Source: an uncultured SAR86 cluster bacterium
GTDB taxonomy: Bacteria; Pseudomonadota; Gammaproteobacteria; Magnimaribacterales; D2472
DNA: 64,000 nt
Assembly (NCBI GenBank): GCA_902525635.1
Contig: CABZHV010000003.1
Span: forward strand, 9,538-73,537
Direction of reading: 5' to 3'
In this document: positions 38,832-58,044 of the stretch, in pieces
Numbering within the stretch: the stretch's first letter is position 1
How the letters are laid out: each line of letters opens with the position of its first letter
Notes under the pieces: generated by a model
The model's database searches: none
Seen by the model: the letters and a program-made list of their open reading frames with translations, nothing else
What the model was told of the DNA's origin: nothing
Made by a program: the position numbers and the translations under genes

Positions 38832-38907
38832 TGGAGCGGGTGACGGGATTCGAACCCGTACCAATAGCTTGGAAGGCTATTGTGCTAGCCGTTAACACCA
38901 CACCCGC
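38832..38907 (-). tRNA. tRNA-Gly (anticodon UCC)
   Basis: The minus strand GCGGGTG...ATAGC-CTTCCAA-GCTAT...ACGGG-TTCGAAT-CCCGT-CACCCGC-TCCA folds as a cloverleaf. CCA is encoded. Confidence 0.9.
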
Positions 38908-47976: not shown

Positions 47977-49389
47977 CTAAAAGTTAATAATTTGAATCGC
48001 CTCAGAATGTTTTTCAGAAAATATTCCTGAAACCATTACAAGCTTTAAAGACTTCCTTTTTTTATAATAAATCTTCAATGTTTTTTTAATGTGATCTAAT
48101 GTTTTATCATGATTATTTAGCCTTTCTACATAAAAAGGTATTGAAGAACCAATTAATGAAAGCTGTTTTAAAGTATTAAGATTATTAGTAAATGTAAATA
48201 TTGGAATATCTTTAGGTTTGGCATTGGAAATAAAATTTGCTGTATCGCCTGTTCTTGTGACTGCGATTATTCCATCAGCTCTAATTGATTCACTTAAATT
48301 TTTTGCAGCGACTGCAATTGACTCCCAGTCTGAATTAGTAATTAATTCTTTTTCATAGCCAAGGGTTTTGAACTTTTCAGTTTTCTTAGAAATTGACTTT
48401 AAAAATTTTACACACTCTACAGGATGCTTACCTATACTTGTTTCTCCAGAAAGCATTAAAGCATCAGCTCCTTCATATACTGCATTAGCAACGTCAGTTA
48501 CTTCCGCTCTAGTTGGTGTTGGATTGTTAATCATTGATTCTAGAAGATGAGTGGCTACAATTGATCTTTTACCCCATTTTGCACATGAAAACATTATCTT
48601 TCGTTGAATATTAGGTAAATCAGTTAAGCTTGTCTCAATACCCAAGTCACCTCTTGCAACCATTATTCCCCATGCTAATTCACAGATCTCGTCAATGCTG
48701 TCTAGGCCTTCTTGATTTTCAATTTTTGCAATTATCTTAGATGTTGATTTTTTTTTAGAAAGCATTTTGTCAAGAACTTCTAAATCTTTTTTATTTCTTA
48801 CAAACGAAGCAGCAATAAAATCCACATTATTTTTAATTCCGAAATTTATATCTTTCATATCTTTTGAGGTTATTGATGGCATATCTAACCTTACTCCAGG
48901 TAGATTGACATGTCTTTTTGAGCCAACTTTACCACCATGAACAACTTTACATATTAAATTTTCTGATTGTTTTGAAAGAACTTTAAAGCTTATCAATCCG
49001 TTATCTACTGATATTTTTGAACCAACATCAACACTGTGAATTAATCCTTTATAGTTAACTTTTATTGAAGATGTTTCTACATCAACTTCATCGCGAACAG
49101 TCAATGTAACTTTATCGCCAACTTTTAAATCAATTGGAAGTGAAGTATCTCCAGTTCTAATTTCTGGTCCTTGTGTATCTAGAAGAATTCCAATCTCAGA
49201 TAATTTATTATTTTTCTCTTTATTGATTTTATTTATATTTTCAATAATTTGTTTAGCACTACTGTGAGTAGCATGAGACATATTAATTCTTGCAACATTC
49301 ATCCCAGCAGTATGAAGTTTTTTTAAAATTATCGGTGAGCTGCTTGCAGGCCCAATAGTACATATGATTTTAGATCTAGTGAATGTCAT
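47977..49389 (-). CDS. pyk: pyruvate kinase
   Basis: KIICTIGPAS start, MVARGDLG motif. 470 aa. Confidence 0.95.
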   Translation of the reverse strand: MTFTRSKIICTIGPASSSPIILKKLHTAGMNVARINMSHATHSSAKQIIENINKINKEKNNKLSEIGILLDTQGPEIRTGDTSLPIDLKVGDKVTLTVRDEVDVETSSIKVNYKGLIHSVDVGSKISVDNGLISFKVLSKQSENLICKVVHGGKVGSKRHVNLPGVRLDMPSITSKDMKDINFGIKNNVDFIAASFVRNKKDLEVLDKMLSKKKSTSKIIAKIENQEGLDSIDEICELAWGIMVARGDLGIETSLTDLPNIQRKIMFSCAKWGKRSIVATHLLESMINNPTPTRAEVTDVANAVYEGADALMLSGETSIGKHPVECVKFLKSISKKTEKFKTLGYEKELITNSDWESIAVAAKNLSESIRADGIIAVTRTGDTANFISNAKPKDIPIFTFTNNLNTLKQLSLIGSSIPFYVERLNNHDKTLDHIKKTLKIYYKKRKSLKLVMVSGIFSEKHSEAIQIINF

Positions 49390-49398
49390 AATTATTGG

Positions 49399-49426
49399 AT
49401 ATTAATGATTATTTAGCCTTTTGCAA
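49399..49426 (-). promoter_or_regulatory. sigma70-type promoter directly abutting the pyk start codon
   Basis: The minus strand reads TTGCAA-N16-TAATAT, with the -10 ending 9 nt before the pyk ATG and no Shine-Dalgarno in between. Confidence 0.4.
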
Positions 49427-49429
49427 GCC

Positions 49430-49650
49430 AAAAAAAAACAGAGACTAGCTCTGTTTCTTAAACGAGTTCCTCAGGGGTCTAAAGTGAGAACTTCTTTAGC
49501 TCCTTGGATTCTCTCTCTTGAATCCTTGGTGGACTTGCAAGCTGTTTTTTAACATCGACTCTTGCACGTGCTTTCACCCTTCGGTCTCTTCCTCTGGTTT
49601 CTCTCTAGATCTTCCGTCTGCAGGTGGTCACTAGTCGGTTACCCTTGGTA
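49430..49650 (-). ncRNA. putative ~220-nt sRNA, copy A (unclassified)
   Basis: Minus-strand promoter TTGACA(49684-49679)-N16-TAATAT(49662-49657). Intrinsic terminator ACAGAG-CTAGT-CTCTGT followed by U9 (49454-49430). No credible ORF. Purine-rich transcript. Confidence 0.6.
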
Positions 49651-49732
49651 TATTTAATATTACTCTAACTTTTAAATGTGTCAACAGTTTTTTTAAAAAA
49701 AATAAGTTTTTTTTTATGTATTTACTGCGGAC

Positions 49733-49953
49733 AAAAAAAAACAGAGACTAGCTCTGTTTCTTAACCGAGTTCCTCAGGGGTCTAAAGTGAGATTTTCTTT
49801 AGCTCCTTGGATTCTTTCTCTTGAATCCTTGGTGGACTTGCAAGCTGTTTTTTAACATCGACTCTTGCATGTGCTTTCACCCTTCGGTCTCTACCTTCAA
49901 CTTCTCTCTAGGTCTCCCGTCTGCAGTTGGTCACTAGTCGGATGTTGTTGGTA
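49733..49953 (-). ncRNA. putative ~220-nt sRNA, copy B (tandem paralog of copy A)
   Basis: Same architecture 303 bp upstream: TTGACA(49987-49982)-N16-TAATAT(49965-49960) and an identical terminator (49757-49733). The 3' two-thirds are near-identical to copy A and the 5' third has diverged. Confidence 0.6.
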
Positions 49954-50036
49954 TTTAATATATTACTTCATACAAAAATCTTGTCAACAGTTTTCACAAA
50001 AAAAAATCTTTTTTTTACAAAAGTTATATTTTATTT

Positions 50037-50324
50037 TTATGACCCCTCTACAACAGTAAATAATCTCTCCGCAGATTCACCAATATACTTTAGAGCATTT
50101 TGATATTGACTTGACTTATAACAATCCACTGCTTCCTTATGTGAATTAAATTCTACAACTACAGTTCTTTCGTATCCATGATTTTCATATTCAGTTTGAG
50201 TACCTCCACGAACTAAAAATCTACCTCCAAATAGGTCTACAGCTGCTGTAGCTTTTTCAATATATTCTGAATATTTTTCTTTGTTAAGAACAGTTGCTCT
50301 GACTACCCAATAACCTTTTCGCAT
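50037..50324 (-). CDS. DUF1330-family protein (dimeric alpha/beta barrel)
   Basis: 95 aa. The pattern MRKGYWVV...KYSEY...FGGRFLVRGG...VVVEF is typical of DUF1330. Confidence 0.75.
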   Translation of the reverse strand: MRKGYWVVRATVLNKEKYSEYIEKATAAVDLFGGRFLVRGGTQTEYENHGYERTVVVEFNSHKEAVDCYKSSQYQNALKYIGESAERLFTVVEGS

Positions 50325-50325
50325 A

Positions 50326-52518
50326 TTATTTTCTTCTGATTCTCATTTCATGCAGTATCGGTTCTGTATATCCACTAGGTTGATATTTTCCTTTAATTGC
50401 AAGTTCGCATGCTGCCTTAAAAGCAATACTGTCGAATGATGGTGACATCTTTTTATAATTAACGTCATTCTTATTTTGTTCATCAACCACTTTTGCCATT
50501 TTCTTCATTATTTCAATTATCTCAGCTTCCGTGCACAATCCATGGTGTAACCAATTCGAAATATGCTGACTAGATATTCTGCATGTGGCCCTGTCTTCCA
50601 TAAGGCCAATATTATTTATATCTAATACTTTAGAACATCCTATGCCTTGATCTACCCACCTAACAACATAGCCTAGTATTCCTTGTGCATTGTTTTCTAT
50701 CTCTGCAAATATTTCTTCTTTTGATGGAAAGTTTTCTTTTTTTATAAAGGGGATATTCAAGAGATCATCTAATTTTGCTTTTTCTCTATTTGTAATTTTT
50801 TCTTGTTCTTCCTGAACAAAAATTTTATGGTAGTGAATTGCATGAATTGTTGCTGCTGTTGGTGAGGGAACCCATGCACAATTTGCACCTGCTAGTGGAT
50901 GCATAGTTTTTGTATTATACATTTCAAGCATTTCATCAGGCATTGGCCACATTCCTTTTCCAATCTGTGCATTTCCTTTGAAACCAGTTTCAAGACCTAT
51001 ATCAACGTTCCAATTTTCATATGCATTTATCCACTTTTCTTTTTTCATGTCAGCTTTAGTAACCATTGGAGCTGCTTCCATGCTAGTGTGTATCTCATCT
51101 CCAGTTCTATCAAGAAAACCAGTGTTTATAAAAATAACTCGATGTTTTGCTACTTCAATACATTCTTTAAGATTTACAGTAGTTCTTCTTTCTTCATCCA
51201 TTATTCCTAATTTGACTGTATTTTCTGGTAAATTAAAAATCTTTTCAATTTCAGAGAATAGATCACAAGTAAACCTTACTTCTTCTGGACCATGCATTTT
51301 AGGTTTAACAATATAAATGCTTTTAGTTTTAGAATTTTTATAAATTCCGTTTCCAATAATGTCATGTATTGCAATGCATATCGTAAAAAATGCATCCATG
51401 ATACCCTCAGGAACTTCGTTATCTTTATTATCTTTTATCGCAGGGTTTGTCATGAGATGTCCAACATTTCTGACAAGCATTAAACTTCTTCCTGGAAGTA
51501 AAATCATTTTGCCGTTTTTAAGAAGATATTTTCTATCAGAATTTAATTCTCTTGTAATAAATTTTCCAGCCTTATCGAAAGATCTTTTTAGATTGCCCTT
51601 CATTAAACCAAGCCAATTTCTATAAACAATTATTTTATCCTCAGCATCAACTGCTGCCACTGAATCTTCACAATCCTGAATAGTTGTAATTGCTGATTCC
51701 ATAAGGATATCCTTTATATTTGCCAAGTCTTCCTGACCAATTGGATGAGATTTATCAATTTGTATTTCAAAATGTAAATTATTATTTTTAAATAATAGGC
51801 CATAAGCACCCTCTCCTTTATCTTGGTAACCTACATATTTATCTTTATCTTTGAGATTTACTTTTGAACCATCTTTTAATTTCATTGACAACTCATTGCC
51901 AATAAATTCAAATTTTATTACTTGATCGTATGTACCTTTGCTCATTGGAATAGTTTCATCTAGAAATTTTTTAGCAAAAGAAATTACCTTATCTCCACGA
52001 ACTGAGTTATACCCGCCTGCTTTTTGAGCTCCATCACTCTCATCAATTATATCTGTTCCATAAAGAGCATCATAAAGACTTCCCCATCTTGCATTTGCAG
52101 CATTTAGTGCAAATCTTGCATTCATTACAGGGACCACTAATTGAGGTCCAGCAATTTTCCTAATTTCAGGATCTACATTCCAAGTTTTAATAGTAAAATC
52201 TTTGCATCTTGGATATATATAGCCAATTTCAATTAAAAATTTTTTATATTTCTCTAGATTAAACTCAGAATTTCTATTTTTAATATGCCATTCGTCTATT
52301 TGATTTTGAAGTTCTTCCCTTTTATTTAATAAATCTTGATTTCGTTTATAGAATTTATTAAGAAGCTCTTCAAATGAGCTCCAAAAATAATTCGCTGATA
52401 TATCTAATCCAGGTAAAAGTTCAGTCTTAACAAATTCTTCCAAACTTGATGAAATGACTAAAGTTATATTCTTATTTTTATCAGATGAGAAGTTAAAAAG
52501 CCTTAAGAGAAATTTCAT
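50326..52518 (-). CDS. glcB: malate synthase G
   Basis: 730 aa, the size and layout of the G isoform. Conserved regions include ARWGSLYDALYGTD, MDEERRTT and PSPTAATIHA. Confidence 0.9.
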   Translation of the reverse strand: MKFLLRLFNFSSDKNKNITLVISSSLEEFVKTELLPGLDISANYFWSSFEELLNKFYKRNQDLLNKREELQNQIDEWHIKNRNSEFNLEKYKKFLIEIGYIYPRCKDFTIKTWNVDPEIRKIAGPQLVVPVMNARFALNAANARWGSLYDALYGTDIIDESDGAQKAGGYNSVRGDKVISFAKKFLDETIPMSKGTYDQVIKFEFIGNELSMKLKDGSKVNLKDKDKYVGYQDKGEGAYGLLFKNNNLHFEIQIDKSHPIGQEDLANIKDILMESAITTIQDCEDSVAAVDAEDKIIVYRNWLGLMKGNLKRSFDKAGKFITRELNSDRKYLLKNGKMILLPGRSLMLVRNVGHLMTNPAIKDNKDNEVPEGIMDAFFTICIAIHDIIGNGIYKNSKTKSIYIVKPKMHGPEEVRFTCDLFSEIEKIFNLPENTVKLGIMDEERRTTVNLKECIEVAKHRVIFINTGFLDRTGDEIHTSMEAAPMVTKADMKKEKWINAYENWNVDIGLETGFKGNAQIGKGMWPMPDEMLEMYNTKTMHPLAGANCAWVPSPTAATIHAIHYHKIFVQEEQEKITNREKAKLDDLLNIPFIKKENFPSKEEIFAEIENNAQGILGYVVRWVDQGIGCSKVLDINNIGLMEDRATCRISSQHISNWLHHGLCTEAEIIEIMKKMAKVVDEQNKNDVNYKKMSPSFDSIAFKAACELAIKGKYQPSGYTEPILHEMRIRRK

Positions 52519-57968: not shown

Positions 57969-58044
57969 TGGTGCGGTACGCCGGTCTCGAACCGGCGGCC
58001 TTCTGCTTGGCAAGCAGACGCTCTACCAACTGAGCTAGTACCGC
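57969..58044 (-). tRNA. tRNA-Gly (anticodon GCC)
   Basis: The minus strand GCGGTAC-TA-GCTC-AGTTGGTA-GAGC-G-TCTGC-TTGCCAA-GCAGA-...GCCGG-TTCGAGA-CCGGC-GTACCGC-ACCA folds as a cloverleaf. Confidence 0.9.

Follow-up and report, generated by a model that had tools for sequence, protein, structure and literature searches.

What is encoded by the two direct repeats that lie between a DUF1330 gene and the pyruvate kinase gene pyk in a genome of the marine SAR86 cluster? The DNA concerned is a stretch of 64,000 nucleotides (nt) of an uncultured SAR86 cluster bacterium (contig CABZHV010000003.1, positions 9,538 to 73,537), hereafter called the window, and a sequence-only reading had taken the repeats for an unclassified pair of small RNAs (sRNAs) transcribed from the minus strand. 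When the region was searched with cmscan against Rfam 15, nonetheless, both copies were found to belong to a family already described, RF02034 (IMES-1 RNA motif). The upstream copy (copy A) matched at 49757-49947, minus strand, with 191.6 bits (E-value of 3.9e-45), and the downstream copy (copy B) at 49454-49644, minus strand, with 181.4 bits (E-value of 1.5e-42); both aligned to positions 1-191 of the 191-position model, i.e., over its full length, with four (copy A) and five (copy B) pairs flagged as non-canonical and with scores more than twice the gathering score of 81 bits. The sequence-only reading had itself called for this search and had named a clean match to a known family as the outcome that would make the pair known rather than novel; that outcome was obtained. 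With near certainty, therefore, the feature is two tandem, separately transcribed IMES-1 genes in a genome of SAR86 (Magnimaribacterales). Our explanation of the locus as a whole, in which this identification is joined by a much more tentative mechanism (a trans-acting structured RNA tied to the pyruvate/glucose node of metabolism), is considered highly probable.

At the Rfam gathering thresholds, the whole window contained two IMES-1 and two tRNA-Gly genes only. When the scan was relaxed to E-values of up to 10, only chance matches (e.g., AgrB, L10 leader, and mir-76) appeared in addition to IMES-1, and none was to CsrB, Rsm, CrcZ, or 6S. IMES-1 is said to have been among the "exceptional" metagenome RNAs described by Weinberg and co-workers in 2009, and reportedly also corresponds to a highly abundant group of metatranscriptome sRNAs (putative small RNAs, psRNAs) described by Shi and co-workers in the same year; by both accounts, it is reported to be extraordinarily abundant and among the top non-ribosomal RNAs of surface-ocean metatranscriptomes. 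To our knowledge, IMES-1 had no known host at the time of those first descriptions, and we know of no function for it seventeen years after its discovery.

The organization of the locus is that of two complete transcription units. A repeat search recovered two 236-nt copies (49429-49664 and 49732-49967) with 90% identity and a spacing of 303 bp, which confirms the 303-bp period and the minus-strand, promoter-to-terminator units of ~220 nt that had been noticed from the letters; a second repeat of 35 nt spans the promoter parts of both units. Copy A (49733..49952, minus strand, ~220 nt; nhmmer match at 49952-49733) is preceded by a -35 hexamer, TTGACA (49982..49987), and, after a spacer of 16 nt, by a -10 hexamer, TAATAT (49960..49965), both hexamers being located by the promoter scan and conserved in position in the flank alignment. 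Copy B (49430..49649, minus strand, ~220 nt; nhmmer match at 49649-49430) is preceded by the same hexamers at 49679..49684 and 49657..49662, and the spacing of TTGACA-N16-TAATAT that had been read in both copies was thus reproduced by the scan. Each of the two promoters (49987..49960 and 49684..49657, minus strand) agrees with the consensus at 10 of the 12 positions, and the -35 hexamer is the perfect consensus in both. At their 3′ ends, the two copies share an identical intrinsic terminator, ACAGAG-CUAGU-CUCUGU with a run of nine U, exactly as had been described; it occupies 49733..49757 in copy A (U run, 49741-49733) and 49430..49454 in copy B, both on the minus strand. The terminator hairpin is formed in the minimum-free-energy (MFE) structures of both copies calculated with ViennaRNA, and the consensus terminator scan listed the hairpin of copy B only (49459-49433), the sequence of copy A being identical. 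From this geometry, the 5′ end of the RNA from copy A would be the A located 8 nt past the -10 hexamer, and its 3′ end would be the run of nine U.

The RNA body of ~195 nt stands out in composition, with 64% purine as opposed to 48% in the window, in agreement with the purine-rich transcript noted earlier, and with 45% GC as opposed to 31%. Each unit, near certainly, comprises an upstream stretch rich in A and T, a sigma-70 promoter close to the consensus, the RNA body, and an invariant intrinsic terminator. Two open reading frames (ORFs) of 64 amino acids (aa) (49865-50059) and 43 aa (49421-49552) on the plus strand overlap the IMES-1 genes and are almost certainly spurious.

The same organization is shared by the family. 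Among 96 copies aligned through their flanks, conservation extends to the A/T-rich stretch, the -35 and -10 hexamers, the terminator stem, and the U run, irrespective of the neighboring genes; the -35 hexamer is TTGACA, or TTGCAA in a divergent clade, and the -10 hexamer is TAATAT, TATATT, or TATAAT. The fold was evaluated on an alignment of 84 distinct copies (mean column identity, 74%), onto which the Rfam pairs were written, with P1a (UACC/GGUA) and the long-range helix extended and the terminator added. In the resulting eight-helix structure, 86.4% of the cells are in standard pairs as compared with 28-49% when the partners are slid by 1-3 columns; changes on both sides are seen in 33 of the 48 pairs (11-21 in the slid controls), and the covariation score, 0.436, is at most 0.106 after sliding and was reached by none of 500 shuffles. 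RNAalifold applied to the raw MAFFT alignment independently recovered P3, P4, and P5 with many compensatory changes. It is hence nearly certain that the IMES-1 body is composed of a 5′ domain (P1a, P1b, P2, and a loop of ~20 nt) and a long-range helix that encloses the hairpins P3, P4, and P5. The two hairpins pointed out by the sequence-only reading, GGAUUC-N8-GAAUCC and CUAAAG-N9-CUUUAG, are the Rfam helices P4 and P5, both of which covary across the family, and covariation, a test of which it had suggested, strongly supports the eight-helix fold. Moreover, 58 of the 84 distinct copies have no ATG-initiated ORF on the RNA strand; together with the conserved units and the covarying fold, the mostly ORF-less copies bear out the proposal of two independent, non-coding RNA genes, each running from promoter to terminator.

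It is in the unpaired columns that conservation is highest, with a mean identity of 0.88 as compared with 0.71 in the paired columns. The invariant blocks, AGAG, GAAAG, CCACCAAG, AAGAGA (P4 loop), and GAC, are spread over the whole molecule; CAAGGAGC is invariant but for one position, at which A is found in at least 90% of the copies, and its GGA is kept in 94%. Such a pattern is that of an RNA working through a bound partner or a defined tertiary structure. Among the short motifs, AGAG alone is enriched, with 6 occurrences in copy A (1.6 ± 1.2 expected) and 6.9 on average in the family; such boxes number 6-9 per copy, ~4 times the expectation from shuffles, and are located in several of the invariant unpaired blocks and also in the terminator stem. 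Over the 84 copies, no change is seen in the terminator stem (CAGAG/CUCUG) or in the U run, and the terminator loop varies. For a plain terminator, it is uncommon that the stem is invariant at a family identity of ~74%. In the RNAalifold prediction, AGAG at positions 62-65, which is invariant, pairs with CUCU in the terminator, which does not vary either.

The distribution of IMES-1 was searched in one genome per GTDB species by using a core pattern of 21 bases taken from the region of the junction and P4, which occurs exactly twice in the window and not at all in shuffles. It matched 99 stretches, which belong to 88 assemblies; SAR86 cluster is the label of nearly all, and the IMES-1-bearing assemblies include SAR86A, SAR86E, three closed genomes, and the cultured isolate HIMB1674. 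With an nhmmer profile, 107 IMES-1 copies were detected in the core-pattern loci plus the window. All of the 16 copies re-tested with Rfam in 13 other loci, including those of SAR86A and SAR86E, passed with 120-206 bits, and the copy of HIMB1674, which belongs to the divergent clade, scored 145.5 bits against RF02034. In DNA, the window itself shares 75-79% identity with the nearest SAR86 loci, and its pyk protein was absent from the protein collection searched; the window would therefore represent a SAR86 species other than the GTDB representatives. The promoter, the RNA body, and the terminator are kept together in ~100 copies elsewhere, and the two expectations of the sequence-only reading, namely conservation outside this genome and affiliation with marine gammaproteobacteria, hold with SAR86 as the host. 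At least two copies are present in 17 of the 88 assemblies, and head-to-tail tandem pairs occur in four genomes with spacings of 303 bp (the window), 305 bp (locus L020), 314 bp (L083), and 325 bp (L032).

Three IMES-1 loci are labelled otherwise, as Pseudohongiella, Woeseiaceae, and Neomarinimicrobiota, and two of these have a SAR86-like GC content of 31-32%. The locus L004 (CACAEJ010000016, Pseudohongiella sp. AG-343-G22) carries a main-type IMES-1 on a contig with a uniform GC content of 43%, where the other loci have 31-40%; it comes either from a higher-GC relative of SAR86 or from a mislabelled or chimeric single-cell assembly. Judged from the assemblies searched, IMES-1 is specific to SAR86.

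Abundant metatranscriptome RNA was mapped by Dupont et al. (2012; PMC3358033) to a region of SAR86A/B with genes for glycolysis, glucose uptake, and the pentose-phosphate pathway, and RNA-based control of carbon assimilation in SAR86 was inferred there; in its passages on this RNA, Shi et al. (2009) is cited, and the name IMES-1 is not used. In our search, the SAR86A scaffold JH611156 (L018) has an IMES-1 copy adjoining pyk. Because of this match and of the matching context, the abundant RNA of those passages would be IMES-1, and the host and the context of IMES-1 would therefore have been published already. The pair in the window is thus real but already known: it belongs to a known RNA family, in a known host, at a known kind of locus. 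About 2-6% of the surface-ocean community is accounted for by SAR86 (PMC11582366). Magnimaribacter mokuoloeensis HIMB1674, the first cultured SAR86 strain, carries IMES-1, and the function of this RNA is therefore approachable by experiment; non-coding RNAs go unmentioned in the 2024 paper that described this strain.

A trace of the RNA itself was met in a viral collection. Four matches were obtained in IMG/VR, and three of them are partial IMES-1 fragments at contig ends (L100, L102, and L103). L102 (IMGVR_UViG_3300016740_000053) is a contig of a picorna-like RNA virus, encoding RdRP_1, RNA helicase, and Rhv capsid domains, and has 141 nt of IMES-1 joined to its 5′ end (positions 1-141); being fused to a contig of an RNA virus, IMES-1 was therefore present in an RNA-derived library. 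L100 and L103 are short "viral" contigs ending in partial IMES-1. The match at L101:399-437 is a chance one (15 bits) inside a helicase-like ORF and is not IMES-1; its contig resembles that of a giant virus, with capsid-like proteins and a putative ribonucleotide reductase recognized by eye. We thus reject a viral origin of IMES-1, and the viral fragments are assembly chimeras and not phage genes.

The pair in the window lies in a cluster of genes for glucose uptake and glycolysis. Around it, the genes are all on the minus strand in the order of glcB, DUF1330, two IMES-1, pyk, a sodium:solute symporter (SSF), a GH3 glycosidase, and the glucokinase gene glk. Upstream are the DUF1330 gene (50037..50324) and, before it, the malate synthase G gene glcB (50326-52518), and downstream of copy B is pyk (47977..49389; Pfam PK and PK_C). 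Between the terminator of copy B and pyk, a promoter-like element, TTGCAA-N16-TAATAT, is located at 49399..49426 on the minus strand. The sequence-only reading had regarded it as a third promoter of the same geometry; its sequence is confirmed, but the element is weaker, with 8 of 12 consensus matches, and is not in the output of the promoter scan. Its -10 hexamer ends 9 nt before the ATG of pyk (49389), with no Shine-Dalgarno sequence in between, and similar TTGCAA...TAATAT elements follow the IMES-1 terminators in other SAR86 loci with pyk downstream. It is plausible that this element is the pyk promoter, and, if used, it would give a leaderless or near-leaderless pyk mRNA.

Neighboring genes were counted over the 107 IMES-1 copies. 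The co-oriented pyk is found downstream of 24 copies, which have six different upstream genes; other downstream genes are OAD-beta (convergent; 11 copies), aceE, SSF, and a LacI-glucokinase fusion (6 copies each), and eda (3 copies). On the upstream side are a divergent gene for an indoleamine-dioxygenase-like protein (27 copies), GH2 (14 copies), and glcB (3 copies), and the arrangement with ETF-QO upstream and a convergent DUF1285 gene downstream (17 copies) is that of the divergent clade including HIMB1674. IMES-1 genes are thus overwhelmingly embedded among genes of the glucose/pyruvate/oxaloacetate node. The fusion of a LacI-type helix-turn-helix domain with glucokinase (Pfam LacI and Glucokinase; 368 aa) is represented by the ORF downstream of the copy at L069:5565 and has homologs in L054, L031, L035, L040, and L095, and the glucokinase of the window is a plain one of 299 aa. 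Elsewhere in the window, Rfam and ARAGORN detected no RNA genes other than the two for tRNA-Gly, which are located at 38832-38907 and 57969-58044 on the minus strand and have the anticodons UCC and GCC.

How might IMES-1 work? Its perfect -35 hexamer, the presence of multiple copies in 17 of the 88 assemblies, and the fragment in an RNA library suggest that it is highly expressed. We propose that IMES-1 would be a very highly expressed, trans-acting structured RNA, the action of which may depend on its shape in three dimensions and on those of its unpaired nucleotides that do not vary. It would bind or titrate a protein (or possibly a metabolite) and would not recognize mRNAs by a single seed; its effect would probably be on the pyruvate/glucose node, the genes of which almost always adjoin it. 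This class of mechanism (trans-acting, binding a protein or ligand, and affecting central carbon flux) is offered tentatively, at somewhat less than an even chance. Several points indeed weigh against it. The transcript ends at this locus are placed from the geometry of promoter and terminator, and the binding partner is a putative one. The models of a sponge for known regulators do not fit, in that GGA is not enriched and only one is conserved, and AANAANAA is almost absent. A tblastn search for Hfq, CsrA (E. coli query), and ProQ gave no matches in ~0.85 Mb of scattered 8-kb SAR86 blocks, an amount of sequence too small to inform, and we found no paper in the literature that links SAR86 with Hfq, CsrA, or 6S. 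The neighbor counts are not independent because much of the neighborhood is inherited synteny, and no gene co-occurs consistently with IMES-1 across the loci. Finally, 53 of 98 copies precede a co-oriented gene at a distance of 0-100 nt, so that read-through of the terminator may make a contribution in cis.

One alternative, which we regard as unlikely, is that of the sequence-only reading, i.e., two base-pairing sRNAs of no known class, in which the 3′ part would be a conserved scaffold or protein-binding module and the divergent 5′ parts would be seeds for different mRNAs. The uneven divergence on which it was built is genuine: copies A and B disagree at 14 RNA positions among the first 65 and at 5 among the 130 after these. 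This imbalance is also uncommon, given that, among pairs within the family whose 3′ domains diverge by 2-5%, the mean divergence of the 5′ domains is 4.5% and only 7% of the pairs reach at least 20%; the Rho-independent terminator with its U tail is, furthermore, like that of many Hfq-dependent sRNAs. Nonetheless, the largest block of 5′ differences, CAAC...GUUG in copy A versus GGGU...ACCA in copy B, corresponds to the two strands of P1b, where, in three of the four pairs, both partners are exchanged with pairing retained (A-U to G-C twice and C-G to U-A once), and P1 covaries likewise across the family. These changes are compensatory, and the divergence therefore preserves the structure, unlike that of a free targeting seed; the idea of a variable targeting region on a conserved scaffold is accordingly not supported by the main 5′ differences. 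The conserved unpaired blocks extend RNA-wide and are purine-rich, which is a poor fit for a seed pairing with Shine-Dalgarno sequences, and runs of three ARN triplets (4 versus 2.1 ± 1.7 expected) are not significantly enriched. Both copies, moreover, are already classified as RF02034.

The uneven divergence points instead to the history of the two genes. In the 3′ domain, the window copies are mutually nearest, with 5 differences as opposed to at least 10 to any other copy, whereas, in the 5′ domain, copy A has 2-4 differences from copies of other species (L019, SAR86A) and 14 from copy B. The same trend, though weaker, is seen in the tandem pairs L020 and L032. The simplest reading is that the window pair is a mosaic, in which either the 3′ domains were homogenized by gene conversion or a recent duplication was followed by replacement of one 5′ domain. 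The P1 variants of copies A and B may be functionally different.

Alternatively, IMES-1 might be a cis-acting leader, i.e., a riboswitch or an attenuator in which the terminator gates read-through into pyk, aceE, SSF, or glucokinase and the short RNA is the terminated product. A promoter, a multi-stem junction with invariant nucleotides, and a terminator do resemble those of transcriptional riboswitches; the downstream gene is co-oriented in 53 of 98 copies, mostly at 10-100 nt, and pyk follows its 24 copies irrespective of which of the six upstream genes is present. In the other 45 copies, however, the downstream gene is convergent, often at a distance of 2-20 nt, and IMES-1 is therefore not an obligate leader; the consistently upstream and co-oriented position characteristic of a riboswitch was not found, and in the four tandem pairs the next element after the first copy is another IMES-1 promoter. 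In addition, neither the terminator stem nor the U run varies, no covarying antiterminator was found by RNAalifold in the 84-copy alignment, the promoter-like element described above separates the terminator from pyk, and Rfam classes RF02034 as a gene and not as a cis-regulatory element. A leader function as the explanation of IMES-1 is hence quite improbable.

A sponge for a global regulator of a known type, such as a CsrB/RsmZ-like RNA for CsrA, a CrcZ-like RNA for Hfq, or a 6S-like mimic for RNA polymerase, would be in keeping with the high abundance reportedly described by Weinberg and by Shi and their co-workers in 2009, with the many multi-copy genomes, with the purine-rich RNA in which CAAGGAGC is nearly invariant, and with its encoding amid carbon-metabolism genes. 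We consider it very doubtful nonetheless. As to CsrA, copy A contains 4 GGA as compared with 4.6 ± 1.8 in shuffles, and the single GGA column conserved in more than 50% of the copies is located in a linker. As to Hfq, AANAANAA occurs 0.21 times per copy on average and is absent from both window copies. The covariation-supported fold, furthermore, is branched, with a 5′ hairpin domain and a three-hairpin junction, and is not the rod with a central bubble of 6S; the Rfam scan at E-values of up to 10, as noted, matched none of these RNAs.

Highly improbable is a repeated DNA element (a recombination hotspot, a mobile element, or an insulator) that shuffles carbon-metabolism cassettes of SAR86, although copies in direct orientation do surround cassettes of differing order (L054 versus L063), copies are frequent at contig ends, and the region is variable according to the relevant passages of Dupont et al. 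(2012; PMC3358033). Compensatory changes in the eight helices indicate selection on RNA structure, promoter and terminator are conserved, the IMES-1 sequence is present in an RNA-derived library, and no terminal inverted repeats or transposase genes were associated with the copies in the repeat search and among the neighboring genes; recombination between the copies may be a side effect. Second copies in direct orientation 1-10 kb apart were observed at L054, L063, L069, L048/L051, L034/L082, L023/L035, L040/L096, and L067/L095, and the cassettes bracketed by IMES-1 (pyk, a patatin-like lipase, LacI-glucokinase, and isochorismatase) vary in order between genomes; for example, the order is GH2, IMES-1, pyk, patatin, IMES-1, and LacI-glucokinase in L054, and GH2, IMES-1, patatin, IMES-1, and pyk in L063. 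IMES-1 copies are often located at the ends of contigs, and ARRL01000002 both starts and finishes with one. These observations suggest that assemblies break at the IMES-1 repeats, by which a variable carbon-metabolism island may also be rearranged. A small protein-coding gene, finally, is effectively refuted by the ORF-less majority (58 of the 84 copies) and by substitutions that are compensatory in helices and not codon-like, notwithstanding an ATG-initiated ORF, M(QES)MLKNSLQVHQGFKRKNPRS, of 23 aa in copy A and 19 aa in copy B, with similar 19-aa ORFs in 15 of the 84 copies.

A further lead on how IMES-1 might act comes from the P2 loop, which contains a hexamer at 49920-49925 (copy A) and 49617-49622 (copy B) on the minus strand. 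Of the 84 distinct copies, 64 have CUGCAG there, and the other 20, which are those of the divergent clade, have CUCGAG; both hexamers are palindromic, and no other state was found. The predicted homoduplexes are stable (-9.9 kcal/mol for CUGCAG and -9.5 kcal/mol for CUCGAG) as compared with the heteroduplex (-1.1 kcal/mol). Palindromic hexamers as such are no more frequent than by chance (3 observed per copy versus 3.1 expected), and that of the P2 loop alone is conserved and unpaired; the support for a kissing loop comes from a single double substitution between the two states. When metagenomes were scanned for the P2 hexamer with A or T at its third position (the first central base), one chance match in a coding region was obtained. 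As a speculation that we hold to be improbable when taken jointly, a particle formed by homodimers kissing through P2, with or without an AGAG-binding protein, might set the pyruvate/glucose flux, while the genes would serve as recombination joints of the cassettes and the tandem P1 variants as isoforms.

The IMES-1 pair adds no new RNA class, and its interest lies in the function of a reportedly very abundant ocean RNA, a mosaic tandem pair, and the presence of the gene in a cultured SAR86 strain. What is added to IMES-1 here is a transcription unit with a conserved promoter, an extra 5′ helix (P1a) that the Rfam model does not cover, and a terminator that is invariant, and also the tandem pairs in four genomes, the mosaic divergence in tandem, and the presence in HIMB1674.

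In comparison with known systems, IMES-1 is like transcriptional riboswitch leaders in having a promoter, a conserved multi-helix junction, and a terminator, often with a co-oriented metabolic gene, but differs from them in that 46% of the copies face a convergent gene, in its tandem copies, and in that no antiterminator pairing was found. With CsrB/RsmZ and CrcZ, it shares a reported abundance, multiple copies, a non-coding nature, a link to carbon, and the probable binding of a factor without a seed; unlike them, it has neither repeated GGA loop motifs nor AANAANAA, no similarity in sequence or structure was found, and it is a single complex fold and not an array of similar hairpins. The dimerization initiation site (DIS) of HIV-1 forms kissing loops through the palindromes GCGCGC and GUGCAC, and the P2 loop of IMES-1 likewise has a 6-nt palindrome flanked by unpaired purines. 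Among bacterial RNAs, self-assembly has been described for GOLLD, ROOL, and OLE (Nature 2025; PMC12286853). The closest of all comparisons is that with the IMES-1 family itself, with which the window pair shares the same helices and the same invariant unpaired blocks, nothing in it being different in kind.

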